DNA from: an uncultured Rikenella sp.
GTDB lineage: Bacteria; Bacteroidota; Bacteroidia; Bacteroidales; VadinHA17
NCBI GenBank assembly: GCA_964411345.1
Contig: CAYPKP010000006.1
Span: 25,942-88,179, forward strand
Length of the DNA: 62,238 bases
Reading direction: 5' to 3'
The translations under genes and the position numbers were made by a program. Below, one piece after another: positions 15,958 to 62,238 of the stretch. Under the pieces are notes generated by a model. The model had not been told where the DNA came from and did not search any database. It saw only the letters and a list, made by a program, of their open reading frames with translations. The stretch's first letter is position 1, and each line of letters begins with the position of its first letter.

Positions 15958-16032
15958 TCGGGGTAGCAAGATTCGAACTTGCGGCCCTCTGGTCCCAAAC
16001 CAGATGCGCTAACCGGACTGCGCTATACCCCG
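15958..16032 (-). tRNA. tRNA-Pro(TGG)
   Basis: Reverse complement CGGGGTATAGCGCAGTCCGGTTAGCGCATCTGGTTTGGGACCAGAGGGCCGCAAGTTCGAATCTTGCTACCCCGA folds as a full cloverleaf; anticodon loop TTTGGGA. Confidence 0.97.
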
Positions 16033-16043
16033 AAAACGATCTG

Positions 16044-16051
16044 CAAAAGTA
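16044..16051 (-). promoter_or_regulatory. -7 element (TACTTTTG) of the tRNA-Pro promoter
   Basis: CAAAAGTA on + strand, 11 nt upstream of the mature 5' end. Confidence 0.5.
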
Positions 16052-16077
16052 GAAAAAATAATTATTACATTTCGGGT

Positions 16078-44488: not shown

Positions 44489-45343
44489 TTATTTATAGTG
44501 TTCCCTGTAAAACTCCAGGGCTTTTTTCACCGATCCCTGCTCCATCAGAAGTATGCGGGCTGCCTCCCTCTGGATGTCAAGCTCCTCAACTATCATCCTG
44601 GTGCCGCGCTCTATCAGCTTCTTGTTGGTGAGCTGCATGTTGACCATCTTGTTGCCTTTTACCCTGCCAAGCTTGATCATGAGCGTTGTGGTTATCATGT
44701 TCAGCACCATCTTCTGTGCGGTACCGGCCTTAAGCCGTGTGCTTCCCGTTAAAAACTCGGGTCCGACAACCACCACGACGGGGTGTTCAGCTACCTTCAC
44801 TATCGGGCTGTCAGGGTTGCATGTGATGCACCCGGTCAGGATGCCGTTCTCCCTTGCTCTCTGTACCCCTCCGATGACATATGGCGTTGTGCCGGAGGCA
44901 GCAATTCCGATAACCGAATCCTTGGTGTTGATGTTGAAAATCTCCAGCTCGCTCCACGCCTTGGCGGGGTCATCCTCGGCAGACTCCACAGCCTTGCGAA
45001 GCGCGGTCTCTCCTCCGGCAATCAGCCCGATAACCACGGTATCGGGCACACCAAAGGATGGAGGCACCTCTGAGGCGTCCAGCACCCCCAGCCTGCCGCT
45101 GGTGCCTGCCCCGAGATAGAAGAGCCTGCCGCCCTTCTGCATCCTTCCGTAAATCTGGTTGATGAGAGTCTCAATCTGAGGTATCGCCTCCCTGACGGCA
45201 AGGTGTACCTTTGCATCTTCCTGATTTATGTTGGTCAGCAACTCATTGACTGTCATCTTGTCAATATCCTCAAAGTTGGAGGGCGACTCGGTAATGCTTA
45301 GCTGTTGTCTTGTGAGACCTGCTTTACTGGTGCTTCGGTACAT
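44489..45343 (-). CDS. murQ: N-acetylmuramic acid 6-phosphate etherase
   Basis: GRLFYLGAGTSGRLGVLDASEVPPSFG, GPEFLTGSTRLKAGTAQKMVLNM, GNKMV. Confidence 0.95.
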   Translation of the reverse strand: MYRSTSKAGLTRQQLSITESPSNFEDIDKMTVNELLTNINQEDAKVHLAVREAIPQIETLINQIYGRMQKGGRLFYLGAGTSGRLGVLDASEVPPSFGVPDTVVIGLIAGGETALRKAVESAEDDPAKAWSELEIFNINTKDSVIGIAASGTTPYVIGGVQRARENGILTGCITCNPDSPIVKVAEHPVVVVVGPEFLTGSTRLKAGTAQKMVLNMITTTLMIKLGRVKGNKMVNMQLTNKKLIERGTRMIVEELDIQREAARILLMEQGSVKKALEFYREHYK

Positions 45344-46184
45344 CTGGATTCTGAATATGATATTTAACGAGGTTGTCCATCGGAGAGAGGGAGAAAATTC
45401 CCGGCTGCAACCTGTGCTCTATAAGCAGCTTCTCGAGAAATGGCCTGAAATGATATGCAATACTGCCTGTAAAATGGACAGGGAAATCCCTGGCCTCCGG
45501 ATAGGAGAGCACATTCCTTACGATGAACTCATCAAAACTGGATGTTATTATCGCCTGCAGTTCCGGTACATGCAGGTTGTCAGCGATGAAGCGCGAAAAC
45601 TGACCAAGAAATTTATTTGGGAAAGGCATGTTGTACACTCTCTCAAGTATCTGTGCGGGAGTATAGTTGTAAGTCCTGAAGAAGGTATCTATCACCTCAT
45701 CCGGGAACTGCTTCTTCAGTATGCCTGATACCAGTTTCCTGCCTATGACGGCACCGCCTCCCTCGTCGCCAAGGATATAACCAAGCGGAGAGACATTCTC
45801 GACAATATTTCTTCCGTCATAGTAGCATGAGTTGGACCCTGTGCCAATTATGCATGCAATACCTGGCTTGTCCATGCAGAGCGACCTCGCTGCACCCAGC
45901 AGGTCACTGCCGATAAACAGGTCTTCAATGCCAAAAAAGGAGGTCAGAGCTCCCTTTACCACGTCAACCTTTGAGGCGTTGCTGACCCCGGTACAGTAAA
46001 AAAAGAGTTTGCTGACACCCGCATTTGCAAGCTCAGGTATCTCCCTGCCCAGCAAACCGGTAATCTCCTCACGGTTAACAAAAAAAGGATTTATACCGGA
46101 AGATGTGTATGACTTCCCGTTACCGGTCTCTGCAACCTCTCTCCATTCAGTCTTGGTGGAGCCACTGTCAGCGATCAGTATCAT
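45324..46184 (-). CDS. BadF/BadG/BcrA/BcrD-type amino-sugar kinase (MurK/GlcNAc kinase-like)
   Basis: ILIADSGSTKTEW, SDLLGAARS, ACIIGTGSNSC, LGYILGDEGGG; directly upstream of murQ. Confidence 0.85.
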   Translation of the reverse strand: MILIADSGSTKTEWREVAETGNGKSYTSSGINPFFVNREEITGLLGREIPELANAGVSKLFFYCTGVSNASKVDVVKGALTSFFGIEDLFIGSDLLGAARSLCMDKPGIACIIGTGSNSCYYDGRNIVENVSPLGYILGDEGGGAVIGRKLVSGILKKQFPDEVIDTFFRTYNYTPAQILERVYNMPFPNKFLGQFSRFIADNLHVPELQAIITSSFDEFIVRNVLSYPEARDFPVHFTGSIAYHFRPFLEKLLIEHRLQPGIFSLSPMDNLVKYHIQNPDVPKHQ

Positions 46185-46388: not shown

Positions 46389-49300
46389 ATGCGAAGATCC
46401 AGTCTCCTCTTTTCTCTCCTCTTATTCCTTGTTGCGCCCGTAATGTTTCAGCCTCTGTCGGGGCAGAAGCCCGGCAGGATGCAGCGAATAGCCGAATCAA
46501 GGCTGAGTGAGTGGGTCACCCCCATCCCGGAGTGGCTTTTCCCGGAAGAGATGAGGATCGATTCCGTGAGTGTTGATGACGGGCAGCGGGAGGTCAGCAT
46601 CTGGCTGCCGGCCGAGGCAGCGCAGAATCCGGTCAGGGAAGAGACTCACGCCCGGCTTGTCAACTCTGTGAGGGAGAGCCTGGGAAGGAGGTTCTCCGGG
46701 TACGGTATCACAGTCCTGTGCGGTGTACAGCCTCTTGAGGAGCTCATACCGAACTACTTCAGGTATGAGCTTCCCCGTGACGCCGGGAGGATACTTCCCG
46801 CACCGGAGTTGAGGCCCCGGCTGGTAGAGCGGATCGGGTCGCCTGAGTCTCCGGAAGGTCTTGACGGCAGGTATATTGCCCTGTGGCACAGTCACGGATA
46901 CTATTTCGACATGACCCTCGACCGCTGGGAGTGGCAGCGTGCGAAGCTCTTCGGCAGTGTGGAGGATCTTTCGGTCATGGCCTACGTAATTCCATACCTT
47001 GTACCCATGCTTGAGAATTCCGGAGCAACGGTATTTCTGCCGCGCGAAAGAGACATACAGGTCAATGAAGTTATCGTTGACAACGACGGTTCTACTGGCA
47101 ACTCCGAGTTTGTATTGCAGGTATCCGAACCTCCTGCTGAGGCGGGATCCGGTTTCACGGTCAGGGATACGCTCTTCAGCGGTGACAATCCCTTCCTCAT
47201 GGGCACTGCCCTGACCATCAGCGACGGCTCAGCGCTGTTCGTTCCCGAGATACCCGAAAGGGGATCATACGGTGTCACGGTCTCCTGGCCGCGTCTCACT
47301 GACGGAGCGGGCAAGGTGCTTTTCAGGGTAGCTCACACCGGCGGGGTGACTGAATTTATTGCAGACCAGTCGGTGGGAGGCGGCACCTGGGTCTGGCTTG
47401 GCTCCTTCATATTCGATAAGGGTCTTGACCGCGACAGAGGCTCTGTCACCATCACCTCTGCCGACGGTTCACCGGTGGCCGTTGATGTTGTCCGTTTCGG
47501 AGGCGGCATGGGCAACGTAGCCCGCCGCCCCTCAGCAACGGTGATAGCCAACCAGTGGTCGCTCAATGCCGGCGAACAGGCTGCTGACGACGAGAGCCAC
47601 GCCTCCGCCGAAAGCTTCAGATGGAAACTGAGCGGCAAGCCGCGGTATCTTGAGGCCGCCCGCTACTGGCTTCAGTTTGCAGGCATGCCTGACACCCTGG
47701 TTTATACGGTCAATCATGGGAGAAACGATTACAATGACGACTACATGTCGCGGTCCGAATGGGTCAACTACCTGCACCGCAAGCCTGACAGTACCGGCGG
47801 CAACGGCATGGGTATCCCCGTGGACCTCTCCTTTGCATTTCATACTGATGCCGGCATCACACCGGATGATTCCATCATCGGCACGCTCGGCATCTATTCA
47901 ACGGCAACCAACGAAGGCAGATTCCCCGACGGCACCAGTCGTCTTGCCAGCCGTGACCTTACTGATATTGTCCAGACCCAGATCGTAGAAGACATATATG
48001 TTATCTTCAATCCCGACTGGACCAGGCGTGCCATGTGGGACCGTTCCTATTATGAGGCACGCAAGCCCGATGTGCCTGCCATGCTCCTGGAACTGCTCTC
48101 TCATCAGAACCTTGCCGACCAGCGTTACGGGTTTGACCCACGCTTTCGCTTCCATGTGAGCCGTGCCGTCTACAAGGGTATCCTCCGCTATCTGGCCACC
48201 GCCTCTGGCACGGAGTATACCGTTCATCCGCTGCCCGTCTCTCACCTGGAGCTTGCTCCCCTGGGCACCAAGAGCATCAGGCTGAAATGGACGCCGGTAA
48301 CTGATCCCCTGGAGTCGACCGCTGACCCGCTCTCATACAAGGTCTACATGGCTGTCGGCGACAACGGCTTTGACAACGGCAGGGAGGTGACCGGCACCAC
48401 CCTTGACATCGAGCTTCCGTCATTCAACATGCTCTACCGGTTCAGGGTCACCGCACTGAATGAAGGGGGAGAGAGCTTCCCCTCGGAGACGCTGTCGACA
48501 GGCTTTGTAGCGGACTCCGGGGAGACCGTGCTTGTTGTCAACGGTTTTGACCGTATCTCCGGTCCCTCGTGGTTTGACCGCGGCGGCATGGGCGGCGTGG
48601 CATGGTGGGATGACCGCGGGGTGGCTGACGGCTACAATTTTTCGAGCATAGGCGACCAGTATGACTTTAACCGCAGGTCGCCCTGGACCGATGATGACAA
48701 TCCGGGATGGGGCGCTTCATGGTCTGACGGCGAGGGAAAGATCATCCCTGGTAACACATTCGACTTTTCTGCGATCCACGGCAGTTCAATCATGGCCGCC
48801 GGCAGGTCGTTCATCTCGGTCAGCGATGAGGTATTCAACAGTGCCGGATTCGATCTCAGACCATACGCTGCCGTTGACCTGCTCTTCGGTGAAGAGAAGA
48901 GCATCCCTTCAGTTTATGATCCGGAAAAGAAGGAGTTTCAGATATACACTCCTGAGTTCGTGCGGAGCCTGGAGAGACTCTCCGAGGCTTCCATGCCACT
49001 GTTCATGTCCGGGGCCTACGTCGGCACCGATCTTGTGATCGCGGCTGACAGTGCCGTCACTGCAAAGGTGATGCAGATCCTTCATTTCAAACCCCGTACC
49101 AACCACGCCGTAAGAACAGGTGAATTCTACGCCACCGACATCGCAGGGCCTGACCTCTCAGGCAGGTTTTCATTCAACACCGGATCCTGTACTGGTATCT
49201 ACGCAGCCGAATCACCCGATGCCATCGAGCCGGCCGACAGGAGATCGCACACAGCATTCCGCTATTCGGAGAACAATACGTCAGCTGCCGTCAGGCATAA

Positions 49301-49409
49301 TGGAGAGGTGAGAACCGTTGTCACCGGCTTCCCGTTTGAAACTGTAACCTCGCAGGAAGAGAGAGACAGTCTGATGAAGCAGATACTGGATTTCATCCTG
49401 AAGAAATAA
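46389..49409 (+). CDS. Multidomain Zn amidase (Amidase_3-like) + golvesin/Xly-CBD-like + fibronectin III protein
   Basis: IALWHSHG, VEDL, FHTDAG, LLELLSHQN; GGTWVWLGSF..AVDVVRFGGG; FN3 KWTP..SYKVY..YRFRVTALNEGGES. Confidence 0.75.
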   Translation: MRRSSLLFSLLLFLVAPVMFQPLSGQKPGRMQRIAESRLSEWVTPIPEWLFPEEMRIDSVSVDDGQREVSIWLPAEAAQNPVREETHARLVNSVRESLGRRFSGYGITVLCGVQPLEELIPNYFRYELPRDAGRILPAPELRPRLVERIGSPESPEGLDGRYIALWHSHGYYFDMTLDRWEWQRAKLFGSVEDLSVMAYVIPYLVPMLENSGATVFLPRERDIQVNEVIVDNDGSTGNSEFVLQVSEPPAEAGSGFTVRDTLFSGDNPFLMGTALTISDGSALFVPEIPERGSYGVTVSWPRLTDGAGKVLFRVAHTGGVTEFIADQSVGGGTWVWLGSFIFDKGLDRDRGSVTITSADGSPVAVDVVRFGGGMGNVARRPSATVIANQWSLNAGEQAADDESHASAESFRWKLSGKPRYLEAARYWLQFAGMPDTLVYTVNHGRNDYNDDYMSRSEWVNYLHRKPDSTGGNGMGIPVDLSFAFHTDAGITPDDSIIGTLGIYSTATNEGRFPDGTSRLASRDLTDIVQTQIVEDIYVIFNPDWTRRAMWDRSYYEARKPDVPAMLLELLSHQNLADQRYGFDPRFRFHVSRAVYKGILRYLATASGTEYTVHPLPVSHLELAPLGTKSIRLKWTPVTDPLESTADPLSYKVYMAVGDNGFDNGREVTGTTLDIELPSFNMLYRFRVTALNEGGESFPSETLSTGFVADSGETVLVVNGFDRISGPSWFDRGGMGGVAWWDDRGVADGYNFSSIGDQYDFNRRSPWTDDDNPGWGASWSDGEGKIIPGNTFDFSAIHGSSIMAAGRSFISVSDEVFNSAGFDLRPYAAVDLLFGEEKSIPSVYDPEKKEFQIYTPEFVRSLERLSEASMPLFMSGAYVGTDLVIAADSAVTAKVMQILHFKPRTNHAVRTGEFYATDIAGPDLSGRFSFNTGSCTGIYAAESPDAIEPADRRSHTAFRYSENNTSAAVRHNGEVRTVVTGFPFETVTSQEERDSLMKQILDFILKK

Positions 49410-49418
49410 TCCGACATC

Positions 49419-50891
49419 ATGGAGAGAAAAATAACATGCTTTTTGCCCTGGTCTGACTCCGGCTCAGTGGCAGCAACAGTAAGATCACTCAGGAGTTCAG
49501 AAGCAGTCAGCAGGATCTTCATCGTAGTACCCCCTGACCATACTGGTGATATCGGGATACAGGAGACACAGATTCTTCGGTCAGCAGGATTTGCATCCAC
49601 CGACGCCCTGAAGAAAATGGCAGCGGTGACTGACACCGATTTTGTATTGATATACAGCAAGGGCTTCCCGCTCGATCCGGGGAGATTTGCCTTCGAGCGG
49701 CTGATACAGGTTTGCGAAGGCACAGGTGCCGGCATGGTCTACTCAGACTACTTCGAGAAAAAGAGTGAGAAGCTCTCACCCCATCCTCTGATAGATTACC
49801 AGGAGGGCAGCCTTCGCGACGACTTCAATTTCGGCTCGGTCATCCTTTACAGTGCCGACGCCTTCAGGAAAGCCTGCAGCGCCATGAACGAAGATTACAG
49901 CTTTGCCGGGCAGTACGATCTGAGGCTCAGGGTCTCGCAGTCCTATCCCGTGGTCCATATCCCGGAGATGCTCTATACAGAGGTGGAGACGGACACCCGC
50001 AGGTCGGGTGAGAAGATGTTTGATTATGTCGATCCGCGCAACAGGGAGGTTCAGAAGGAGATGGAGAGAGCCTGTACGGATCACCTCAGGGAGGTCGGCG
50101 CCTGGCTTGGACCGCAGTTCAGGGAGATGGCATTCGATGATGAGACCTTTGAATACGATGCCTCTGTCATCATTCCTGTGCGAAACAGGGTCAAAACCAT
50201 AGGTGATGCCATCGAATCGGTGCTGAGCCAGAAATCGCACTACAGCTTTAACCTGATACTCGTTGACAACCACTCCACCGACGGTACAACTGACGTTGTC
50301 AGGTCGTTTGCAGGCGACAGCAGGGTGGTGCATATCATACCGGAAAGAGATGATCTGGGGATCGGAGGATGCTGGAACGAGGCTATTTTCAGTGATAAGT
50401 GCGGCAAGTTTGCCATACAGCTTGACAGTGACGACCTTTATATCGACGACTCGGTGGTGACAAGGATCGTTGACGCCTTTCATGAGCAGCAGTGCGGCAT
50501 GGTGGTAGGCTCCTACAGGATGGTCAACTTTGAGCTGAAGGATATCCCTCCGGGGCTTATAGACCACAGGGAGTGGACTCCCGACAACGGCAGGAACAAT
50601 GCGTTGAGGATCAACGGCCTCGGGGCTCCCCGGGCCTTCTACACGCCTCTCCTGCGCAGTGTCAGGGTCCCCAACGTCAGCTACGGCGAAGATTATGCCG
50701 TCGGCCTCGCAATAAGCCGGCACTACAGGATAGGACGGATATATGAACCCCTTTATCTCTGCCGCCGCTGGGATGAAAACTCAGATGCCCTTCTGGATGT
50801 CGGAAGGATGAATGCACATAATCTCTATAAGGACAGGATACGCACGATGGAGCTTCTTGCCAGGAGACGTTTGATCAGCAGCGGAAGGTGA
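49419..50891 (+). CDS. Glycosyltransferase family 2 protein (two GT-A-like domains)
   Basis: SVIIPVRNR, LVDNHSTDGT, QLDSDD, YGEDY; N-domain with VYSDY..PLIDYQ.GSLRDDF. Confidence 0.88.
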   Translation: MERKITCFLPWSDSGSVAATVRSLRSSEAVSRIFIVVPPDHTGDIGIQETQILRSAGFASTDALKKMAAVTDTDFVLIYSKGFPLDPGRFAFERLIQVCEGTGAGMVYSDYFEKKSEKLSPHPLIDYQEGSLRDDFNFGSVILYSADAFRKACSAMNEDYSFAGQYDLRLRVSQSYPVVHIPEMLYTEVETDTRRSGEKMFDYVDPRNREVQKEMERACTDHLREVGAWLGPQFREMAFDDETFEYDASVIIPVRNRVKTIGDAIESVLSQKSHYSFNLILVDNHSTDGTTDVVRSFAGDSRVVHIIPERDDLGIGGCWNEAIFSDKCGKFAIQLDSDDLYIDDSVVTRIVDAFHEQQCGMVVGSYRMVNFELKDIPPGLIDHREWTPDNGRNNALRINGLGAPRAFYTPLLRSVRVPNVSYGEDYAVGLAISRHYRIGRIYEPLYLCRRWDENSDALLDVGRMNAHNLYKDRIRTMELLARRRLISSGR

Positions 50892-51032
50892 AACCGGAAA
50901 GCATAGGCAATAAGGACTGAGGAACATATTCGCCCTGAAAATTATTCGCAGGTAAAACTGAAAACCAGATGCTGGGTAAGCTGAAGAGCAGATTTAAGCT
51001 GAGGAGTATTCACAGGGGAAATTGAAAATCAT

Positions 51033-51971
51033 ATGCACGATCACTCAAATATGGTAAATGATCTCTTCGAGAGTCAGTTCATGGAGTGGCCTCTGGCGCG
51101 CGACAACTATGGTCAGCTTGACGGTGTGAGGGTAAGGAAGATACCTTTCCCGGGCTACGAGATCGCCGTGCAGTTTAATCCCGGGAGGATCGTCTCATCA
51201 GCGGCGAAGGTGGATGCCGGCTCCATCAAAGCGAGACCCTGCTTCCTCTGTGAGGATAACAGGCCGCCGGAGCAGAGGGGAGTGCCCTTTGGCAGCGACT
51301 ACATCATACTGATCAATCCCTTTCCGATATTCAGGCGTCATCTTACCATCGTTAACAGGGCACATACACCGCAGCAGATTGAAGGCAACTTTGCCTCAAT
51401 GCTCTCTCTGGCAGAGGCACTGCCCGATTTTGTCATCTTCTACAACGGCCCGCAATGCGGAGCCTCAGCTCCCGACCACCTCCATTTCCAGGCCGGCAAC
51501 AGGGGTTTTCTGCCGGTGGAGAAAGATTTCGGCAAACCTGACCTCGGCACTGCCGCGGTCTCCTCAGAAGGTGTTGAACTACGTCTGTGGAGCGGCTATG
51601 GCAGGGGGATGCTGACTCTTGCGGGGAGTGACAGCAGGGCTATCGACAATGCCTTTTCCCGTTTTTACGGTACGTTTGCCGCCACACAGCCTGAACGGCC
51701 GGAACCCATGCTTAACATGCTTGCTTACCACTCCGCGGGCAGATGGACAGTGCATATAGTACCCCGAAGGGTTCACAGGCCGTCGTGCTACTTTGCCGCG
51801 GAGCAGGAAAGGATTCTGCTGAGCCCGGCGTCAGTTGACATGGGAGGGGTGTTCATCACCCCCAGGGAAGAGGATTACAACAAGATCACCGCCGCTGATA
51901 TCAGCAGCATCCTCGGAGAGGTATGCCTTAGCGACGGTGAGATGAAATCATTAACGGAAGTACTATTATGA
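51033..51971 (+). CDS. DUF4922 protein (HIT/GalT-like HxHxQ nucleotidyl transferase/phosphorylase)
   Basis: QFNPGRIVSS.AKVD, RPCFLC, NPFPIF..HLTI, FYNGPQCGASAPDHLHFQAG. Confidence 0.82.
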   Translation: MHDHSNMVNDLFESQFMEWPLARDNYGQLDGVRVRKIPFPGYEIAVQFNPGRIVSSAAKVDAGSIKARPCFLCEDNRPPEQRGVPFGSDYIILINPFPIFRRHLTIVNRAHTPQQIEGNFASMLSLAEALPDFVIFYNGPQCGASAPDHLHFQAGNRGFLPVEKDFGKPDLGTAAVSSEGVELRLWSGYGRGMLTLAGSDSRAIDNAFSRFYGTFAATQPERPEPMLNMLAYHSAGRWTVHIVPRRVHRPSCYFAAEQERILLSPASVDMGGVFITPREEDYNKITAADISSILGEVCLSDGEMKSLTEVLL

Positions 51972-53311
51972 AGGAGAGAAGCTTTCCCGAAATAAGCGTG
52001 GGCATAGTGTCAGGCAAGGCACTGACGGTCACTCTCAACGGAGAGTATAATGTCTCAGGGGCTGAGCGAAGCATTCAAGGCCAGTGGACTGCAGCATTCA
52101 GTGAAGGCAGAGTCGTGCTCACAGGTGACGGAGCCCCCGTACAGGCAGGCCGGGAGCTGATACTGGTGCCGGCAGATCACCGGCGCTGCAGCTTCACCCT
52201 CCATGCCGTGACCATAGGCGTAGCCTTTCACTGGGAGCGCAACGAAGACCAGACCTTCGTGGGCAAGCTGAAGTTCATGATCATTGAAGAGCGGGTTACG
52301 GCAGTAAATCTGGTGCCTGTTGAGGATTACCTTGCCAGTGTGATCTCCTCGGAGATGAGTGCCACATCATCGGTGGAGCTGCTGAAGGCGCACGCCGTGA
52401 TATCAAGGAGCTGGCTGCTGGCGCAGATCGACAAAACCGCACGCCTCGAAGCAGGAGGAAAGCGGCATGCTGCAAACCAGGTTACCGCAGGTGAAATCAT
52501 CCGTTGGTATGACCGGGAAGACCACAGGGAGTATGATGTTTGCGCTGATGATCACTGCCAGCGTTACCAGGGGATCACCAGGGCAACAACTCCGGAGGTG
52601 GAGAGCGCTGTGCGGGAGACAGCCGGAGAGGTGCTCATGTCAGGCGATGCACTGTGTGATGCACGTTACTCCAAGTGCTGCGGCGGCATCACTGAACTGT
52701 TTGAAAACGTTTGGGAGCCGGTAAGCCACGACTGTCTGCAGAGCGTCACGGATGCTGTCCGTCCGCCCGAGGGCTTCAACACGGATCTCACCACAGAGGA
52801 GAATGCTGTCAGATGGATAAAAGGTAATCCAGGAGCCTTCTGCAACAGCAATGACAGGGCGGTCCTGTCGCAGGTGCTCAACAGCTATGACCAGGAGACC
52901 AACGACTTCTTCCGTTGGAAGGTGGCATACAGGCAGGAGGAGCTCAGTGCCCTGGTGAGGGAGCGCACCGGCATCGATTTTGGCTTGATAACGGCCATGG
53001 AACCGCTGGAACGCGGCACCTCCGGGCGCATCATAAAACTGAAGATCACGGGTGACAGGAAGAGTATGATAATTGGCAAGGAGCTGGAGATCAGAAAGGC
53101 ACTCTCAACGTCGCATCTTTACAGCTCGGCCTTCTTTGTAGAGACAGAAGATGACGAACAGGGCAGATCCTTTATACTTCACGGCGCCGGATGGGGCCAC
53201 GGGGTGGGACTCTGCCAGATAGGAGCCGCGGTTATGGGCTCTCTGGGCTTCGGGTACACGGAGATCCTCTCGCACTATTTTGTACATTCAGTGCTTCAAA
53301 AGATATACTAA
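51968..53311 (+). CDS. SpoIID/LytB-domain protein (putative lytic transglycosylase)
   Basis: EDYLASVISSEM, KAHAVISRS, DDHCQRYQG, GAGWGHGVGLCQIGA, ILSHYF. Confidence 0.9.
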   Translation: MKERSFPEISVGIVSGKALTVTLNGEYNVSGAERSIQGQWTAAFSEGRVVLTGDGAPVQAGRELILVPADHRRCSFTLHAVTIGVAFHWERNEDQTFVGKLKFMIIEERVTAVNLVPVEDYLASVISSEMSATSSVELLKAHAVISRSWLLAQIDKTARLEAGGKRHAANQVTAGEIIRWYDREDHREYDVCADDHCQRYQGITRATTPEVESAVRETAGEVLMSGDALCDARYSKCCGGITELFENVWEPVSHDCLQSVTDAVRPPEGFNTDLTTEENAVRWIKGNPGAFCNSNDRAVLSQVLNSYDQETNDFFRWKVAYRQEELSALVRERTGIDFGLITAMEPLERGTSGRIIKLKITGDRKSMIIGKELEIRKALSTSHLYSSAFFVETEDDEQGRSFILHGAGWGHGVGLCQIGAAVMGSLGFGYTEILSHYFVHSVLQKIY

Positions 53312-53312
53312 G

Positions 53313-55781
53313 ATGAAAAGCATTATTTCACTTGCATTGCTGTTATGCCTGCCTTTTTTTACCGCAGAGGCAGACTCATGGATAAGGATCAACCAGCTGG
53401 GATACCTTCCGCAGTCGGTGAAGGTGGCAGTATACATCTCGCAGGAGCCGGGGGCCAAACCTACATTCACGGTCTGTGATGCCCTGACGGGAAAGAGGGT
53501 ATTCACCGGCAAGGCATCCCTATATGACGGTTCGGCATGGGGTATGGGTGCCGCAGCCAGGCTTGACTTCTCGGCACTGACATCTCCGGGAGGCTATTAT
53601 ATCAGGTACGGAAACACCATCTCGGAGACATTTCGCATAGGCCATGGGGTCTATGACGGTACGGCTGACTTCATTCTGAACTATATCAGGCAGCAGCGTT
53701 GCGGGTACAATCCCTTCCTGGCCGACACATGTCATGCCCATGACGGGGTCATTGTGGATCATCCTGCCCTTACAGGAACGGTCATTGATGTCAGGGGAGG
53801 GTATCATGATGCCAGTGATCACCTGAGATACACAGCCACCACATCCACTTCGGTCTACCAGATGATGTTCGCCTGGGAGAGATCGCCGGAGATCTACGGC
53901 GACAGCCATGATGCTGCCGGTATGCCCGGCAGCAACGGTATTCCCGATATCCTTGATGAGGCAAGGTGGGGCCTGGAGTGGCTGCTGAAGATGAACCCCG
54001 ACAGCGGGATGATGTTCAACCAGGTGGCTGACGACCGTGACCACCGGGGATTCAGGCTGCCGAACCTCGACAGGGCCGACTACGGGCTGGGGCCCTACAG
54101 GCCGGTTTACTTTGTCACAGGCAAGCCGCAGGGACTGGCCAGGTTCAAGAACCGCACCGAGGGAGTAGCCTCCACGGCAGGCAAATTTGCCTCGGTCTTT
54201 GCCATGGGGGCACGCATCTTTGCCGGCAGTGATCCCTCATTTGCCGCTCTAATGAAGTCAAGGGCTGCCGATGCCCTGGAGTATGCCCGTACTGACCCCG
54301 GTGCCACACAGACAGCCTGCAACGTCTCTCCCTATTTCTATGAGGAGGACAACTATGTTGATGACATGCAGCTGGCAGCATGGGAACTGTGGTCCCTCAC
54401 CGGTGATCAGGAGCTCCTGGCCGAGGCCGACTACTGGGGGACGCTCGAACCATTCACTCCGTGGATAGAGAAAGACACGGCACGCCATTACCAGTTTTAC
54501 CCGTTTGTTAACCTGGGGCACGCCCGGCTCGCCATGTCAGACACGCAGTATTCCCAAAAATATATTGACTTCATGCGGAAGGGGCTCGACCTTATCAACG
54601 CCCGCGATCAGCATGATGTCTTCCAGGTGAAGATACCCTTTGTGTGGTGCTCCAACAACTATGTGGCCGCAGCCCTGACACAGTGCAGGCTCTACCGCGA
54701 AATTACGGGAGACGGCAGGTTTGATCATATGGAGGCGGCGATGCGCGACTGGCTCTTCGGGTGCAACCCGTGGGGGACATCGATGATATGCGGGCTGCCG
54801 TCCGGAGGCGACTACCCCCTATATCCCCACTCGGCCGTTACAGTATACCTTGGCCAGACGACAACGGGAGGACTGGTTGACGGGCCGGTATACAGGGGCA
54901 TCTATGAGAGCCGCAAAGGGATCACCTTGCTAAATCCGGATCCCTATGCCGCCTTCCAGAACGGTCCTGTAGTCTATCACGATGACATCGGCGACTACAG
55001 CACGAACGAGCCTACGCTCGACGGTACTGCCAGCCTCAGCTATTACCTCTCCACGCTGGAGAAGGAGGGAAGGCAGGGTCGCGACCTGGCTTCGGGCGAT
55101 ATCCGGGATGATCACGGCGCCCTCATCAGGAAGAGCTCCGGAGAAAAGGCAATATACCTGCTCTTCTCCGCTGATGAGTATGGAGAAGGGTTTGATCACA
55201 TACTCAATGTGCTTGACCGCAAGATGATCAAAGGCTCTTTCTTTCTGACAGGCAATTTTCTCAGGAACAAACAGTTTGCGTCTGTAATTAAACGGCTGAT
55301 TTCCGGTGGTCACTACCTCGGGCCACACTCGGACGGACACCTTCTGTATATACCCTGGGAGAACCGCGATACCCTGCTGGTCACCAAGGATCAGTTCAAC
55401 CAGGATATGAGAAAGAACATCATTGAGCTGGGACGGGCAGGAGTCAGGGAGAAACCCCGCTGGTTCCTGGCGCCCTATGAATGGTACAACAGTGCCATCA
55501 GCCGGTGGAGTGAAGAGCTGGGGCTTACACTGGTGAACATCACTCCGGGCACCGGTACAGGCGCAGACTACACCACACCCGGGATGGCGAACTACAGGTC
55601 ATCGGAGTTTCTGATTGAGAGGCTTGCCAGGTTTGAGGAGAACTCACCCCTGGGACTGAACGGGGCGCTGCTGCTGATCCACCCGGGCACTGATCCGGCG
55701 CGGGAGGACAAGCTCTACCTGAAGCTGGAAGAGCTGATTGAATATTATCAGGAAAAAGGTTACACATTCAAAAAGTTATAA
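53313..55781 (+). CDS. GH9 (Ig-like + catalytic) fused to a C-terminal CE4 polysaccharide deacetylase
   Basis: IRINQLGY, DVRGGYHDASD, STNEPTLDG; then LLFSADE, GPHSDGHL, FLAPYE, LLIHPG; start at 53313. Confidence 0.82.
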   Translation: MKSIISLALLLCLPFFTAEADSWIRINQLGYLPQSVKVAVYISQEPGAKPTFTVCDALTGKRVFTGKASLYDGSAWGMGAAARLDFSALTSPGGYYIRYGNTISETFRIGHGVYDGTADFILNYIRQQRCGYNPFLADTCHAHDGVIVDHPALTGTVIDVRGGYHDASDHLRYTATTSTSVYQMMFAWERSPEIYGDSHDAAGMPGSNGIPDILDEARWGLEWLLKMNPDSGMMFNQVADDRDHRGFRLPNLDRADYGLGPYRPVYFVTGKPQGLARFKNRTEGVASTAGKFASVFAMGARIFAGSDPSFAALMKSRAADALEYARTDPGATQTACNVSPYFYEEDNYVDDMQLAAWELWSLTGDQELLAEADYWGTLEPFTPWIEKDTARHYQFYPFVNLGHARLAMSDTQYSQKYIDFMRKGLDLINARDQHDVFQVKIPFVWCSNNYVAAALTQCRLYREITGDGRFDHMEAAMRDWLFGCNPWGTSMICGLPSGGDYPLYPHSAVTVYLGQTTTGGLVDGPVYRGIYESRKGITLLNPDPYAAFQNGPVVYHDDIGDYSTNEPTLDGTASLSYYLSTLEKEGRQGRDLASGDIRDDHGALIRKSSGEKAIYLLFSADEYGEGFDHILNVLDRKMIKGSFFLTGNFLRNKQFASVIKRLISGGHYLGPHSDGHLLYIPWENRDTLLVTKDQFNQDMRKNIIELGRAGVREKPRWFLAPYEWYNSAISRWSEELGLTLVNITPGTGTGADYTTPGMANYRSSEFLIERLARFEENSPLGLNGALLLIHPGTDPAREDKLYLKLEELIEYYQEKGYTFKKL

Positions 55782-55783
55782 GC

Positions 55784-57454
55784 ATGGCAGGCAAGAATGC
55801 CAACCGCTCCCCGTGGGCATGGGTTCCTTCGCTCTATTTCTACCAGGGTATTCCCTACAGCATAGTGATGACCACCTCCGGGCTCATTTACAAGACCATG
55901 GGTGTCTCTGTGGCTTCGTTTGCCTTCTGGACGAGCATCCTCTATCTGCCCTGGGCGCTGAAGCCACTCTGGAGTCCCTATATAGATGTCGTATCGACAA
56001 AGCGCAACTGGGTGGTATGGACACAGCTGCTGATAGCGGCCACCTTCATCGGCGCAGGCCTGGCGATGCAGCTGCCGATGTTCTATCCCATCACCATAGC
56101 GATCTTTGCCATCATCGCTATCTCCTCTGCGAGCCATGATATTGCCGCCGACGGTTTCTACATGTATGCCCTCAACCAGCACAAGCAGGCCTATTTTGTA
56201 GGTATACGAAGCACCTTCTACCGTTTTGCCATGCTCACGGCGCTGGGCCTTATCCCGCTGGTTGCCGGGATAGTACAGAAGAACACCGGTCTTGAGCCTC
56301 TCGCTTTTGAGGCGAGATCAGTAAGCCTGGCCGACTATCAGCCTTTTGATCCTGCAACCATAGAGATCAAGGAAGAACCGGGAGAACCCCGGCTGCTTCT
56401 GTACCCTGAAGAGATTACCGTGCCGATGTGGGAGGCAGGGGTCTCCGAGCTCGACTCGGCAGTTGTCTTCATAGCCCTCTCCGCTCCCCCGGAAGAGGGG
56501 GAGACCATCGTTGTCAACATCGCCCGCGAAGGCGGAAGCAAGGATATCGATATACCCAGGAACCAGGTAAGCAGGTTCGAGTTCACCGGCAGCAACTGGG
56601 ACGTTCCTGCCGCCGTTTCGCTGAAAACGCACCATAACCTCAAGGAGGCCACAACGGCGGAGTTTGGCATCACCGCCGGGAATATAGCCTTCAGCTGGAC
56701 AGTCTCGCTGGGGGTGCTGGGGCTGCTGCTCCTCCTGCTGGCGCTCTACAACCGCTATATTCTTCCCCGGCCTGCGGAGAATGACATCCGTGAGAAGGTG
56801 AGCCTGAAGGTCTTTGTTGAGGTCTTCGTCTCCTTCTTCACCAAGCCTGGTGTTGTCGCCGCCCTGGCCTTCTTCCTGCTTTACAGGCTTGGCGAGGCAC
56901 AGCTGGTGAAGATTGCCACACCCTTCCTGGTCGATTCCAGAAGCATGGGAGGCATAGGTCTTACCTCGGCACAGTACGGCATCATCTACGGCACCCTGGG
57001 CATGGTCTGCCTGACCATAGGGGGCATCCTGGGCGGCATCCTGGCGGCGAAATACGGACTGAAGAAGCTGATCTGGTACATGGCTGTGGCAATGAACCTT
57101 CCCAACCTTGTATATGTCTATCTTGCCTATGCTCAGCCGATGCCCGGCGACCTGGGTGTCTATCTCTCCGTCGCCACCGAGCAGCTGGGTTACGGTTTCG
57201 GGTTCACGGCCTATTCTCTCTTCATGCTCTATTATGTGGGCGAGAGCAAATACAAGACCGCCGAGTTCGCCATAGGTACGTCACTGATGGCCCTGGGAAT
57301 GATGCTGCCGGGCATGGTGTCGGGAAAGATATTCGAGGCGATAGGCTATGAACACTTCTTTATCTGGGTGTTGATATGCACCATTCCGGGGATGCTCTCA
57401 ATACTGTTCCTGAAGATCGATCCCGGGTTTGGACTCAAGAAGAACGAAGGATAA
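55784..57454 (+). CDS. ampG: AmpG-family muropeptide MFS permease with ~129-aa insertion
   Basis: PWAWVPSLYF.QGIPY, LPWALKPLWSP, SASHDIAADGFY, GIRSTFYR, YRLGEAQL, EQLGYGFG, MMLPGMVSG. Confidence 0.88.
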   Translation: MAGKNANRSPWAWVPSLYFYQGIPYSIVMTTSGLIYKTMGVSVASFAFWTSILYLPWALKPLWSPYIDVVSTKRNWVVWTQLLIAATFIGAGLAMQLPMFYPITIAIFAIIAISSASHDIAADGFYMYALNQHKQAYFVGIRSTFYRFAMLTALGLIPLVAGIVQKNTGLEPLAFEARSVSLADYQPFDPATIEIKEEPGEPRLLLYPEEITVPMWEAGVSELDSAVVFIALSAPPEEGETIVVNIAREGGSKDIDIPRNQVSRFEFTGSNWDVPAAVSLKTHHNLKEATTAEFGITAGNIAFSWTVSLGVLGLLLLLLALYNRYILPRPAENDIREKVSLKVFVEVFVSFFTKPGVVAALAFFLLYRLGEAQLVKIATPFLVDSRSMGGIGLTSAQYGIIYGTLGMVCLTIGGILGGILAAKYGLKKLIWYMAVAMNLPNLVYVYLAYAQPMPGDLGVYLSVATEQLGYGFGFTAYSLFMLYYVGESKYKTAEFAIGTSLMALGMMLPGMVSGKIFEAIGYEHFFIWVLICTIPGMLSILFLKIDPGFGLKKNEG

Positions 57455-57471: not shown

Positions 57472-60400
57472 ATGGTAACGGAAGAGAAGTTCAGAAAGCT
57501 TGCGGAAGAGATCACCGGTGATCTCTATACTGACATTACACAGCGTATACTCTATGCCACGGATGCCTCGGCATACAGGGAGGTGCCCCTGGCAGTGACC
57601 AGGCCTGCCGGCCGTGATGATATAAAAAAGATAATTGCCTTTGCCCGTCGCGAGGGCACATCGGTCATCCCCCGCGGGGCCGGCACCTCGCTGGCAGGCC
57701 AGGTGGTGGGGCCGGGGATCGTCATGGACATCTCAAAACATCTGAACCGTATCCTTGAGTTCAACCCGGGGGAGCGCTGGGTTACGGTGGAACCCGGCGT
57801 GGTACTGGCGGAGCTGAACCGGTATGTGGCTCCTCACCGCCTGCAGTTCGGTCCCGAGACATCCACCGCAAACCGCTGCTGCATGGGAGGCATGCTGGGC
57901 AACAACTCATGCGGTGCTCACTCCATCATCCATGGCAGCGTGAGAGACCACATCCTCGAGGTTGATGCCGTTCTGTCCGACGGGTCAGAGGTCCATTTTG
58001 GCGCTCTCACCAGGGAGGAGTTCAACGCAAAGTGCGACGGTGACCCCGGACTGCTGGAGACGCAGATTTACAGAAATCTCCGAGACATCCTCTCCGATCA
58101 GCGAAATGCGGAGGAGATAGAGAGGGAGTTCCCTCATCCGGAGCTGCGGCGGCGAAACAACGGTTATGCCCTCGACATAATGCTGAGGACGGATCCATTT
58201 ACCGGTAACGGTGAGAAGATAAACGTTTGCAGGCTCCTGGCAGGTTCGGAAGGTACCCTGGCCTTCACCACGGTCATGAAGCTGAACCTGGTACCAGTCA
58301 CTGAACAGAAGACCGGGTTGCTCTGCGCCCACTTCAACAGCCTGCAGGATGCCGTCAGGGCTAACATTATCGTGCTTAAGCACTCGCCTGCCGCCGTGGA
58401 GCTGATAGATGACTATATCGTCAACTGCACCGGCGACAACATTGAGCAGAGCAAAAACCGCTTCTTCATCAAGGGCGATCCGAAGGCAATACTGCTGATT
58501 GAGATCATCCGGCCGACTTTTCAGGAGATAGAGAAGACAGCTTCGGCTATGGAGAGGGATATGATTGCTGCAGGCTACGGCTACCATTTTCCGCTTTATA
58601 CCGGTGCCGAAGAGATGGCGAGGGTGTGGGAGCTGCGCAGGGCCGGCCTGGGGGTGCTGCTCAATATCCCCGGCAGGAAGAAGAGCGTTCAGGTCATAGA
58701 GGATACCGCCGTGCTGCCGGAGCTCTTTCCCGGTTACCTGGAGGATGTCACTACCGTACTTGAGAAATACGGGCTGAGCTGCGCATACTACGCACATATT
58801 GCCACCGGAGAGCTGCATCTCAGTCCCCTGCTTGACCTGAAAGACCCTGCCGACATAGAGATATTTCACGGTCTGGCCAGGGATATAGCCCTTCTTGTAA
58901 AGAAGTACCGCGGTTCGCTCAGCGGCGAGCACGGCGACGGCAGGCTGAGGGGTGAGTTTATCCCCCTGATGCTCGGGGAGCATAACTACGAGCTGCTGAA
59001 GGCGATAAAGAAAACGTGGGATCCGGCTTCTGTATTCAATCCGGGAAAAATTACCGACACTCCCCCCATAACCGGCAACCTGAGGTATCCGGCAGGAGTC
59101 AGGATGAAGGTGCCGGGGATAGTCTTTGACTTTCCGGAGGAGGAGGGGCTGCTCTATGCCACGGAGAAGTGCAGCGGCTCGGCCGACTGCCGCAAGAGCG
59201 CCCTTGTGGGAGGCGCCATGTGCCCGACTTTCATGGCAACGGGCGACGAGGATAAGTCGACACGCGCCAGGGCAAATATCCTGAGGGAGTTCCTGACGAG
59301 ATCGGAAAAAACGAACCGGTTTGACCATGAGGAGATATACCGGGTGATGGATCTCTGCCTCTCATGCAAGGCATGCAAGGCCGAGTGTCCTTCAAACGTC
59401 GATGTGGCCAAGCTCAAGGCCGAGTTCCTGCAGCATTATTATGATATCCACCACGTGCCTTTCCGTGCATGGCTCATAGCATGGCTGCCACGGCTGTACA
59501 TCCCCGGCATGATGGTTCGTCCGCTTACCAACCTGGTGACCTCAACGGCTCTCTTCAAGCGCATCATTGGCTTCTCGGTGAAACGACCCATCCCTGCCCT
59601 CTCGCCCGTCACGTTAAGAGCATGGCAGAGACGTCACATCAGAAATAGCGTCGGATTTAATGGCAGTGCGGATGGAGCCGGGAGAAAATCGGTCACTGCT
59701 GCTACCGTCGGTTCCGGCACTGAAGATCACCTGCTGGGCAGCAGAGACCATCTCATATCGAAAGGCACCGTCTGCCTCTTTGCCGATGAGTTCACCAACT
59801 ACAACGAGAGCGACATTGGCATCAAGGCGGTGATGCTGCTTGAGAGACTGGGATACAATGTCATCATCCCGCGCCACAGGGAGAGCGGACGCACCTTCCT
59901 CTCCAAGGGACTGATACGGTCGGCACGCAGGCTGGCCCTGAAAAATATACTGATGCTGAAGGATGTTGTCTCCGAAGAACGGCCGCTGATAGGCATCGAG
60001 CCGTCAGCGCTCCTGACCTTCCGGGACGAGTATCCTGACATGGCAGGAGAGTCACTGGCTGAAGATGCGCGTAACATTGCGCGCAACGCACTCCTCTTTG
60101 AGGAATTCATCTCCCGCGAGGCGGACAGGGGTAATATCACGCCGGACCAGTTTACGGACCGGTCCCTGAAGATACTGCTGCACGGCCACTGCCAGCAGAA
60201 GGCGGTGGCATCGACTGCTCCCACCGTCACGATGCTGTCGCTGCCCCGCAACTACAGCGTTGAGGAGATAAATGACGGCTGCTGCGGCATGGCAGGAGCC
60301 TTCGGCTACGAAAAGGAGCACTATGACCTGAGCATGAAGATAGGCGAAATGGTGCTCTTTCCGGCTGTGCGGGCTGCAGAGGCTGAGACTGTAATAGCTG

Positions 60401-60501
60401 CACCGGGCACATCCTGCCGGCACCACATCGCTGACGGCACGGGACGCCGGGCGCTGCATCCGGTTGAGATAATGTATGACGCTCTTGAGAAACAGGATTG
60501 A
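57472..60501 (+). CDS. FAD-linked oxidase + [4Fe-4S] + CCG protein (YdiJ/GlcD-like D-2-hydroxyacid dehydrogenase)
   Basis: YATDASAY, PRGAGTSLAGQ, GGMLGNNSCG, GSEGTL, SGEHGDG, CSGSADC, CLSCKACKAECP, HGHCQQKA, CCGMAGAFG. Confidence 0.9.
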   Translation: MVTEEKFRKLAEEITGDLYTDITQRILYATDASAYREVPLAVTRPAGRDDIKKIIAFARREGTSVIPRGAGTSLAGQVVGPGIVMDISKHLNRILEFNPGERWVTVEPGVVLAELNRYVAPHRLQFGPETSTANRCCMGGMLGNNSCGAHSIIHGSVRDHILEVDAVLSDGSEVHFGALTREEFNAKCDGDPGLLETQIYRNLRDILSDQRNAEEIEREFPHPELRRRNNGYALDIMLRTDPFTGNGEKINVCRLLAGSEGTLAFTTVMKLNLVPVTEQKTGLLCAHFNSLQDAVRANIIVLKHSPAAVELIDDYIVNCTGDNIEQSKNRFFIKGDPKAILLIEIIRPTFQEIEKTASAMERDMIAAGYGYHFPLYTGAEEMARVWELRRAGLGVLLNIPGRKKSVQVIEDTAVLPELFPGYLEDVTTVLEKYGLSCAYYAHIATGELHLSPLLDLKDPADIEIFHGLARDIALLVKKYRGSLSGEHGDGRLRGEFIPLMLGEHNYELLKAIKKTWDPASVFNPGKITDTPPITGNLRYPAGVRMKVPGIVFDFPEEEGLLYATEKCSGSADCRKSALVGGAMCPTFMATGDEDKSTRARANILREFLTRSEKTNRFDHEEIYRVMDLCLSCKACKAECPSNVDVAKLKAEFLQHYYDIHHVPFRAWLIAWLPRLYIPGMMVRPLTNLVTSTALFKRIIGFSVKRPIPALSPVTLRAWQRRHIRNSVGFNGSADGAGRKSVTAATVGSGTEDHLLGSRDHLISKGTVCLFADEFTNYNESDIGIKAVMLLERLGYNVIIPRHRESGRTFLSKGLIRSARRLALKNILMLKDVVSEERPLIGIEPSALLTFRDEYPDMAGESLAEDARNIARNALLFEEFISREADRGNITPDQFTDRSLKILLHGHCQQKAVASTAPTVTMLSLPRNYSVEEINDGCCGMAGAFGYEKEHYDLSMKIGEMVLFPAVRAAEAETVIAAPGTSCRHHIADGTGRRALHPVEIMYDALEKQD

Positions 60502-60659
60502 CATGATTAATTGAGGATTGCAGCTTCCCGGAAAAGAGTCTGCATAAACAAACAGAGGGGATCGATGAAACCTGCCTGAGAGTAACCTCACAGGATCGAA
60601 TGATTATAATTTTTCATTCAGGTTGCATTCGAACAATGAAACAAAAACAAACCAATAGT

Positions 60660-62238
60660 ATGAAAACTGCAGTTTTGAGCAAGGTGGAACAGTCGTTCTT
60701 CGAACGGTCGGGCAGGAGAGAGCCAACGACAAAACTGCCATACGTGGTGGTCCCCAATTTTCCGGGTCTTGGCCTGCTGACGGCGCTGAGATTCCTGGAA
60801 TGGGTCGCCGCCAACCCTGACGGGGTGATAAGCCTCCCCACCGGCAAGACGCCGGAGTACTTCATCAAGTGGACGCAGTACCTGCTGAAGAACTGGAGTA
60901 AGGCTGAAGCCGTAAAGATACGTGAGGAGAACGGACTTTTCCTGGATGAGAAGCCTTCACTGCGAGGCCTTCACTTCGTGCAGATAGATGAGTTTTATCC
61001 CATTGACCCGCGCCAGCACAACAGCTTCTTTGATTATGTGAGCAAATATTACATAAAGGGCTTTGAGCTCGATCCTTCCAAAGCACTGCTGATCAACAGC
61101 GAAGAGATACCACTGGCAGAGGGCAGGCACTATTCGGAGGTTTTTCCTGACAGCCTTATAGACCTGAGCCTGAGGAACAGGGAGCCGCTCAGCCCGCTGG
61201 AGAGGCTGCAGCAGGCATCGATCTTCAGCATTGACAACTGGTGCACCAGATACGAGAAGAAGATCCGCGATCTTGGAGGGATAGGCTTCTTCCTGGGAGG
61301 AATAGGGCCTGACGGACATATAGCGTTCAACACACGGGGCAGTGACCATAACTCTGCCACCAGGCTCACGGCAACCAACTTCGAAACGCAGGCGGCATCG
61401 GCCGGCGACCTGGGAGGGATAGAGGTCTCCCGTACCAGGCTGGTGATCACAATAGGACTGGGGACGATTACCTGTGATCCGGATGCGGTATCGATTATAT
61501 TCGCCGCCGGCGATGCCAAGGCACATGTAGTCAGGGATGCTCTTGAGAACGGACCTGACAACCTTTATCCCGCCACCGTGCTCCAGGGACAGAAGAATGC
61601 ACGCTTTTACATCACTGACGGTGCTTCCGTTCAGCTTCACGATACCGTTGAGAGATACTACAGGGAGGGCGAGTGGACCTTCGAAAAGACCGAGAGAGCC
61701 ATCCATGACCTCTGCCGGAAGATCGACAAATATGCGCATAAGCTGGTTCTGGAAGATCTGCAGAACGATGAATACTGCTCGCTGATACCTGACCTTAGCC
61801 TGGACAGGGTCAGTGATGTGATAGAATCGACCAAAAGCAAGATTGAGTCGGGACTGAAGCGGGAGCGCAATGCCACGTTCTTCCATACCGGGCCGCACCA
61901 TGACGACATCATGCTCGGCATCTTTCCTGCAATCATACCACAACTGAGAGAGATAACCAACAAATTTCATTTTTCGGTTCTGACATCAGGATTCACCGCC
62001 GTTACCAACAGCATGCTGCTCGGACTGCTTGAGGAGACCCGGAGGCTGATAGGAATTGGCAAGGTGCAGATGCTGGAATACCCTGATTTCTTTGACCAGG
62101 GCTACAGGTTCAAGTGGGACAAGGATGTCAGCCACTATCTCGACAAGGTGGCTGACAAGGATGAGGCCGGCAAGCTGAGGGGAGTATGCCACCGGATTGT
62201 GAGGGCGATGGTAGATATTTACCGGCTGAAGTCGAAGG
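60660..62238 (+). CDS. nagB: Long glucosamine-6-phosphate deaminase (NagB) fused to a PIG-L/LmbE-like domain; truncated by window end and absent from the ORF track
   Basis: Hand translation: SLPTGKTP, VQIDEFYP, FLGGIGPDGHIAFN, ITIGLGTI, then HTGPHHDDIMLG (61893-61907) and SVLTSGFTAV; no stop before 62238. Confidence 0.85.
   Translation, partial: MKTAVLSKVEQSFFERSGRREPTTKLPYVVVPNFPGLGLLTALRFLEWVAANPDGVISLPTGKTPEYFIKWTQYLLKNWSKAEAVKIREENGLFLDEKPSLRGLHFVQIDEFYPIDPRQHNSFFDYVSKYYIKGFELDPSKALLINSEEIPLAEGRHYSEVFPDSLIDLSLRNREPLSPLERLQQASIFSIDNWCTRYEKKIRDLGGIGFFLGGIGPDGHIAFNTRGSDHNSATRLTATNFETQAASAGDLGGIEVSRTRLVITIGLGTITCDPDAVSIIFAAGDAKAHVVRDALENGPDNLYPATVLQGQKNARFYITDGASVQLHDTVERYYREGEWTFEKTERAIHDLCRKIDKYAHKLVLEDLQNDEYCSLIPDLSLDRVSDVIESTKSKIESGLKRERNATFFHTGPHHDDIMLGIFPAIIPQLREITNKFHFSVLTSGFTAVTNSMLLGLLEETRRLIGIGKVQMLEYPDFFDQGYRFKWDKDVSHYLDKVADKDEAGKLRGVCHRIVRAMVDIYRLKSK

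Follow-up and report, generated by a model that had tools for sequence, protein, structure and literature searches.

A YdiJ-family dehydrogenase fixed in a peptidoglycan recycling operon of an uncultured Rikenella lineage is a candidate respiratory D-lactate dehydrogenase

The stretch of DNA analysed here, a 62,238-nt window of contig CAYPKP010000006.1 from an uncultured Rikenella sp. (order Bacteroidales), carries at its 3' end a gene for a multidomain flavin adenine dinucleotide (FAD) and iron-sulfur (Fe-S) dehydrogenase, embedded in an island of peptidoglycan recycling genes. The genome contains two such dehydrogenases: the one in the window, which we call copy A (its relatives forming type A), and a second, copy B, on another contig. 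The data are best explained if copy A encodes a flavin/iron-sulfur dehydrogenase of D-2-hydroxyacids that is cytoplasmic, associates with the membrane and has become fixed in a peptidoglycan recycling operon. We propose, at a probability of roughly 0.55, that it is the operon's membrane- or quinone-linked D-lactate dehydrogenase, dealing with the by-product of the etherase MurQ, while copy B would stay with D-2-hydroxyglutarate (D-2-HG). A first-pass annotation, made from the sequence alone, had proposed such a dedicated oxidation of the lactyl moiety; the proposal is now supported, though unproven, by the ampG linkage, by the loss of an arginine from the predicted substrate pocket and by murQ operons in Flavobacteriaceae. 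All coordinates are those of the window unless a locus label is given.

The linkage of copy A to the recycling genes is strict. As had been annotated, the gene follows ampG and precedes a nagB-like gene: the gap between the AmpG stop codon (57452-57454) and the start of the dehydrogenase is exactly 17 nt, and 98 nt separate its end from the NagB-like gene. The + strand shows no terminator-like site or hairpin between AmpG and the point where the contig stops, and we infer that the dehydrogenase is co-transcribed with both neighbours. Each of the 16 A-type loci examined has AmpG on one side of the dehydrogenase and the NagB-like gene on the other. These loci comprise 13 genomes of the genus together with L119, L097 and L098; the two most distant members looked up are 68% identical, and L119 is an 81%-identical relative recorded as an "uncultured Rikenellaceae bacterium". 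The wider locus contains MurQ, a MurK-like kinase, NamZ, an NlpC/P60 peptidase and an L-Ala-D/L-Glu epimerase-like gene. Outside type A, 20 other Bacteroidales families were compared: 14 of them keep the core of this arrangement (Golvesin-GT2-DUF4922-SpoIID with AmpG), each time without the dehydrogenase, and the AmpG clusters of all 20 lack both this gene and the long NagB-like one. The earlier statement that this step is seldom encoded in recycling operons is thus borne out, also by Flavobacteriaceae, where 89 of 92 genomes with a related gene lack the linkage.

The annotated FAD and Fe-S architecture was likewise confirmed with Pfam and NCBIfam models. The frame runs from an ATG at 57472 to a TGA at 60499-60501 and encodes 1009 residues; a longer reading frame starting at 57376 was rejected (it overlaps AmpG), and the start at 57472 is supported because alignments to homologues begin at residues 1-7 of that start. 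Along the chain lie FAD_binding_4 (residues 39-176), FAD-oxidase_C (282-527), a two-[4Fe-4S] dicluster region (565-644, matched by Fer4_17 and Fer4_8) and a GlpC-like C-terminal part (618-1006 and 766-1005 in the NCBIfam GlpC models), the last being the part through which electrons presumably leave for the membrane or the quinone pool. An AlphaFold2 model has a mean predicted local distance difference test score (pLDDT) of 89.8 and a predicted template modelling score of 0.88. In Foldseek comparisons, the N-terminal half matches mouse D-lactate dehydrogenase (LDHD) structures with a target-normalized template modelling (TM) score of 0.86-0.87 (E 6e-25) and human D-2-hydroxyglutarate dehydrogenase (D2HGDH) with a TM score of 0.80; we rejected this ranking as evidence on the substrate, the difference being small and the catalytic core common to both. 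The gene evolves under purifying selection, the ratio of nonsynonymous to synonymous substitution rates (dN/dS) against its closest relative being 0.042/0.484 (~0.09). A Gly/Ser/Ala-rich insert of 32 residues (729-760), which no genome but this one and its closest relative has, separates the membrane-proximal helices from the GlpC-like domain.

The catalytic residues are those of a 2-hydroxyacid dehydrogenase. In a phmmer alignment to mouse LDHD (8jdc), R389, H442, H449, E486 and H487 correspond to R347, H398, H405, E442 and H443, which serve there as carboxylate ligand, metal site and base (PMC10589216). All five are invariant in the homologues examined, and the cluster cysteines are all intact in type A and in the alignments with E. 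coli YdiJ. The group at the far end of the substrate is contacted in mouse LDHD by W351, S365 and I407 (PMC10589216) and in human D2HGDH by T390, K401, Y432 and N443 (PMC7801405); the corresponding positions here are 393, 409, 440 and 451. Residue 451 is Ser in all 120 type-A proteins retrieved by protein search. By contrast, E. coli YdiJ, which oxidizes D-2-HG and nothing else (PMC9504171), has Arg at this position, and the 39 sequences of copy B and other Bacteroidales all have Arg or Lys; in 79 other Bacteroidota loci it is Arg or Lys in 69, Glu in 8 and Leu in 2. The basic side chain is presumed to be the ligand of the distal carboxylate in YdiJ.

At otherwise conserved sites, clade A differs from all other sequences at five positions only (S397L, V438A, R451S, R562Y/H/N and S935D). 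The first three are in register with the pocket, S397L falling in the helix that follows R389, V438A in the strand leading up to H442 and R451S in the strand that follows H449, and together they have the look that would be expected from loss of a distal-carboxylate site, as judged by homology at ~22% identity. Position 562 is Arg in most Bacteroidota and Tyr, His or Asn in type A, its alignment to E. coli being unstable. Other combinations occur elsewhere: Larkinella and Arsenicibacter (L155, L168) carry a Leu451/Tyr397/Glu438 variant, and a "charge-swapped" Arg397/Ser438/Glu451 group is found in Sphingobacterium, Pedobacter, Flectobacillus and others (L156, L162, L172, L175, L177, L179, L181, L182). 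The YdiJ family thus seems to diversify at exactly positions 397, 438 and 451.

Copy B is present in nearly every genome of the genus and is 51% identical to copy A. In the genome studied here it lies outside the window (C79:5355-8297), encodes 980 residues and carries Arg451; it is divergent from pta-ackA-ptb-ptb-buk in 11 of 11 genus genomes (L084-L093 included). Most Bacteroidales families (85 of 121) have a single copy. Among 47 single-copy Bacteroidales loci, 8 adjoin DUF1338, about 12 adjoin pta-ackA, and none has AmpG, MurQ or NagB-like neighbours; copy B is therefore the positional orthologue. The pairing of the dehydrogenase with pta-ackA-ptb-ptb-buk is itself conserved in the genus and in some twelve further families of the order. 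A maximum-likelihood tree gives copy A a clade of its own (support 100), sister to the orthologue of family G101 and not to copy B, which rules out a recent duplication of B within the genus and implies that A came from a transfer or an old duplication. By its sequence, copy A appears to be a xenolog-like extra copy, laterally acquired or anciently diverged. The type-A set comprises 120 distinct clusters of 67-93% identity.

An association with catabolism of N-acetylmuramic acid (MurNAc) is also seen in Flavobacteriaceae. In a sample of 101 genomes from this family, one YdiJ-like gene was found in 92 and murQ in 99. Three of the 92 have a second copy of murQ, situated 1-5 kb away from the YdiJ-like gene, and compact operons of the two genes occur only in genomes with such a second copy. 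In Algibacter miyuki (L194:1173-12895), from a set of 80 named Bacteroidota loci, the order is SSF transporter-MurQ-GH3-GH18-NamZ-YdiJ-like-NagB/PIG-L, all genes sharing a strand and standing a few bases apart; in G150 (L201:5700-12857), one of the three genomes, a DeoR gene stands beside SSF-MurQ-AnmK-YdiJ-like, with a 17-nt gap. In one further metagenome-assembled genome AmpG and AnmK are divergent from the YdiJ-like gene, and in two Aquirufa the gene is convergent with NagB/PIG-L. Because the Flavobacteriaceae operons are independent of type A, the association has arisen at least two times, and because their murQ-linked copies carry Arg, the change from Arg to Ser is not required for it. 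The Ser451 change is confined to the lineage in which a second copy is retained as well.

These results are consistent with the following pathway. The AmpG-like permease would import wall fragments, which would be trimmed to MurNAc-6-phosphate; from this MurQ would release D-lactate, the GlcNAc-6-phosphate (GlcNAc, N-acetylglucosamine) going to the NagB-like enzyme. Copy A would then oxidize D-lactate to pyruvate, with Arg389 holding the carboxylate, His487 acting as the base, His442, His449 and Glu486 forming the metal site, and the hydride passing to FAD. Electrons would travel from FAD through the two [4Fe-4S] clusters to the GlpC-like domain and then probably to menaquinone; the substrate and the electron acceptor are both inferred, and the GlpC-like domain is the ground for assuming a link to quinone. 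Copy B, having kept the ancestral locus, would stay a D-2-HG enzyme. D-lactate is the unique by-product of MurQ (PMC6165865). Neither a lactate permease nor LldD nor Dld (PF09330) was found in the genome; a D-lactate enzyme here would therefore serve D-lactate made internally. LldP in particular was found neither in about 200 loci nor in the genome, and E. coli LldP, LldR and LldD gave no match in tblastn searches against all the loci examined.

Several observations weigh against assigning D-lactate to copy A. The linkage in Bacteroidales is limited to one genus-level clade, and the count in Flavobacteriaceae is low. The murQ gene is upstream at a distance of 12 kb and, as part of a divergent operon on the other strand, belongs to a separate transcription unit. 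The roles given to residues 397, 438 and 451 rest on homology at ~22% identity, and Ser451 is polar, in contrast to the hydrophobic residue of known D-lactate enzymes. The best curated model is YdiJ. The murQ-linked Flavobacteriaceae genes are single-copy and keep Arg451, so that either Arg451 is compatible with D-lactate or these operons mean something else. Finally, a gene at 3330-4451 (+) for a 373-aa 2-hydroxyacid dehydrogenase, resembling NAD-dependent D-lactate dehydrogenase/VanH and below all curated cut-offs, might consume or supply D-lactate instead. A tentative extension, which we rate above the oxidative etherase discussed below but as less likely than not, is that the ancestral YdiJ-like enzymes of Bacteroidota were bifunctional (D-2-HG and D-lactate) and that this genus subfunctionalized them, Arg451Ser being the switch.

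The alternative that competes best is that copy A acts on another 2-hydroxy or ether acid of amino-sugar or wall catabolism, such as glycolate, D-glycerate, D-malate or the lactyl group still on MurNAc or MurNAc-6-phosphate. The pocket lined by Leu397, Ala438 and Ser451 fits neither D-2-HG nor known D-lactate enzymes and has no characterized match, and a NagB/PIG-L-type gene recurs as a neighbour as much as murQ does; furthermore, relatives of the same fold, such as alkyl-dihydroxyacetonephosphate synthase, do ether chemistry, and mycobacteria have an unidentified lactyl-etherase (PMC6572805). The catalytic set (Arg, two His, Glu and a His base), however, is exactly the one found in 2-hydroxyacid dehydrogenases, whose substrates must have their 2-hydroxyl free; MurQ is present in every linked locus, twice in this one; and no other 2-hydroxyacid is known from peptidoglycan breakdown. 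We consider this alternative distinctly less probable than D-lactate.

Somewhat less probable again is that copy A is still a D-2-HG dehydrogenase, clearing D-2-HG from SerA or from an HglS-like DUF1338 protein, with a place in the operon that is metabolically meaningless. One argument for it is kinship. The sole full-length curated match is NCBIfam NF049975 (YdiJ), and copy A shares with YdiJ of E. coli and Pantoea and with P. putida PP_4493 the same four-part chain of ~1000 residues, catalytic set and cluster cysteines; YdiJ is strict for D-2-HG, PP_4493 works with DUF1338 (bioRxiv 10.1101/450254), and the window holds a DUF1338 gene of its own. Yet the match reaches 538 bits against an equivalog cut-off of 1350, so that copy A is a relative of YdiJ and not an equivalog; by sequence we place it as a divergent member of the YdiJ-like group (YdiJ/Dld-II architecture). 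It is 28% identical to E. coli YdiJ, has Ser in place of Arg451 in every type-A sequence, and its neighbours are not DUF1338, ppsA or menI. Three of the YdiJ features looked at are accordingly absent: the cut-off score, the basic pocket residue and the DUF1338 linkage. A partnership with DUF1338 had been the competing hypothesis of the first-pass annotation, and the comparison of genomes speaks against it and for ampG: the DUF1338 gene is 42 kb away, DUF1338 was never seen beside a type-A gene, and adjacency occurs only in the ancestral type (8/47 Bacteroidales and 7/80 named Bacteroidota loci, or 15/127 related single-copy loci). Moreover, copy B, with Arg451 at the ancestral locus, can do the job, and the operon position of copy A is kept under purifying selection to 68% identity. 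A tblastn search of plasmids returned 345 homologues, of which those inspected (two from Pseudoalteromonas, one each from Klebsiella and Vibrio) were YdiJ-type genes beside ppsA/menI or in an uninformative context.

We regard as a long shot the possibility that copy A is a flavin-dependent oxidative lactyl-etherase, converting MurNAc or MurNAc-6-phosphate to GlcNAc(-6-phosphate) and pyruvate independently of MurQ; were it true, the one ether cleavage known from wall recycling would have a second route, by redox chemistry, and the mycobacterial etherase might be of the same type. That copy A is a decaying or functionless duplicate hitch-hiking in the operon, as its status as an extra copy and its disordered insert might suggest, is excluded by the conservation data (the low dN/dS, the intact catalytic residues and cluster cysteines, the 120 distinct clusters and the high-confidence structure model).

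For D-lactate oxidation itself, the proposed working mode of type A follows the Fe-S D-lactate dehydrogenases, Shewanella oneidensis Dld-II (SO_1521) and P. putida PP_4737, multidomain FAD and Fe-S enzymes that pass electrons from D-lactate to quinone; the likeness is one of architecture and description, not of sequence comparison, and for the Fe-S D-iLDH of P. putida KT2440 we draw on the work of Jiang et al. 2017 as relayed in PMC8827060. Genes of that kind sit with a lactate permease and LldR-type regulators, for external lactate, a linkage that type A lacks. Mouse LDHD (8jde) and human D2HGDH (6lpp) have the same fold and the same metal and substrate residues but are soluble proteins of ~460 aa, lack Fe-S domains and are ~21% identical to type A, whose subsite B differs from theirs (Leu393, Leu397, Ile409, Tyr440, Ser451).

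The closest described operon is the ampG-murT-murK-murQ cluster of Tannerella forsythia (PMC7670621, PMC5388701, PMC5790795), with which the locus shares AmpG, a MurK-type kinase, MurQ and NamZ. That nine-gene cluster has no dehydrogenase and its description never mentions lactate; the genus studied here has added both the dehydrogenase and the long NagB-like gene. A functional parallel exists in Corynebacterium glutamicum, where the respiratory D-lactate dehydrogenase Dld removes the D-lactate of heterologous MurQ (PMC6165865, PMC3022706) and D-lactate accumulates when MurQ exceeds D-lactate dehydrogenase capacity (PMC6165865); that Dld is of an unrelated type (PF09330), and the coupling is engineered rather than a natural operon. 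In a limited literature search we found no report of a recycling operon for MurNAc or peptidoglycan that includes a D-lactate dehydrogenase.

To our knowledge, schemes of peptidoglycan recycling stop the lactyl branch at "D-lactate" and are silent on its fate, and the reference Bacteroidales operon, that of Tannerella, has no enzyme for it. If the D-lactate assignment of copy A is right, a respiratory D-lactate dehydrogenase encoded genus-wide in the operon would close this branch and, in an anaerobe, connect the salvage of wall material with the quinone pool. The two copies would then be a natural pair of paralogues (Ser451 in A, Arg451 in B) in which one pocket residue may set D-lactate versus D-2-HG specificity, and thousands of genes now named by their domains ("FAD-binding and (Fe-S)-binding domain-containing protein") could be better annotated. 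An ordinary D-2-HG dehydrogenase would make the locus a mere curiosity of gene order.

Table 1. Features of the dehydrogenase gene and its surroundings (window coordinates)
Feature	Position	Strand	Evidence and remarks
Type-A YdiJ-family FAD/Fe-S 2-hydroxyacid dehydrogenase (copy A)	57472..60501	+	Pfam, NCBIfam, AlphaFold2, dN/dS
Flavin and substrate domains; catalytic R389, H442, H449, E486, H487	57586..59052	+	Pfam; phmmer alignment to mouse LDHD 8jdc
Ser451 codon, two residues after metal-binding His449; equivalent to mouse LDHD Ile407 and human D2HGDH Asn443	58822..58824	+	Alignment
Two-cluster ferredoxin-like domain; Cys567, 573, 584, 629, 632, 635, 639	59164..59403	+	Fer4_17/Fer4_8; Cys invariant in alignments A1, A2
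Low-complexity insert, residues 729-760, disordered	59656..59751	+	pLDDT <50; BLAST matches of most relatives break here
GlpC-like C-terminal domain; CCG-type C907, C937, C938, C982	59758..60489	+	NCBIfam GlpC; Cys invariant in alignments
AmpG-like major facilitator superfamily muropeptide permease, directly upstream	55784..57454	+	TIGR00901, 151 bits, below cut-off 350
Long NagB-like gene, truncated by contig end; 776 aa in relatives	60600..62237	+	NCBIfam PRK02122 and nagB, below cut-offs
Golvesin_C/fn3 protein, GT2, DUF4922, SpoIID/LytB, GH9+CE4 fusion, upstream	46389..55781	+	Pfam
BadF/BcrA-type kinase-like gene adjoining murQ (MurK-like)	45324..46184	-	Weak Pfam match; accompanies murQ in other families
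MurQ, MurNAc-6-phosphate etherase, source of D-lactate	44489..45343	-	TIGR00274, 312.9 vs cut-off 302; NF003915, 370 vs 168
GntR/FCD regulator	43709..44434	-	Pfam; NCBIfam NanR, PdhR, LldR, GlcC all below cut-off
Short DUF1338/HGLS protein, 273 aa	14885..15706	-	PF07063, 89.7 bits; 42 kb from the dehydrogenase

The remaining genes of the island (Table 1) fall into two blocks. The divergent block with murQ consists of the BadF-type kinase-like gene (MurK of T. forsythia is characterized in PMC5790795), MurQ, the GntR/FCD regulator, a GH18 protein and a beta-lactamase-fold protein. The regulator is the sole match in the genome to E. coli LldR (tblastn, 27% identity), and its best curated models are all of small-carboxylate sensors. 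Further members of the island in close relatives are NamZ, an NlpC/P60 peptidase, an L-Ala-D/L-Glu-epimerase-like enolase and a second MurQ-like protein. This last SIS protein (L026:1-1668; L119:17337-18920) exceeds 556 aa, with an etherase-like N-terminus and an extension, and closes the island of the relatives; in the genome of the window it lies past the contig end. The long NagB-like protein (L026:6028-8358 in a relative) has zero Pfam matches and only NCBIfam matches below cut-off, and it is just 24% identical to the NagB+PIG-L protein that stands in its place behind the dehydrogenase in Flavobacteriaceae. At the far side of the window, the DUF1338/HGLS protein, short compared with ~450 aa for HglS, stands 272 nt from a divergent RACo-like Fer2+ASKHA protein (region 14885-17580), and the same DUF1338 type adjoins an Arg451 dehydrogenase in other Bacteroidota.

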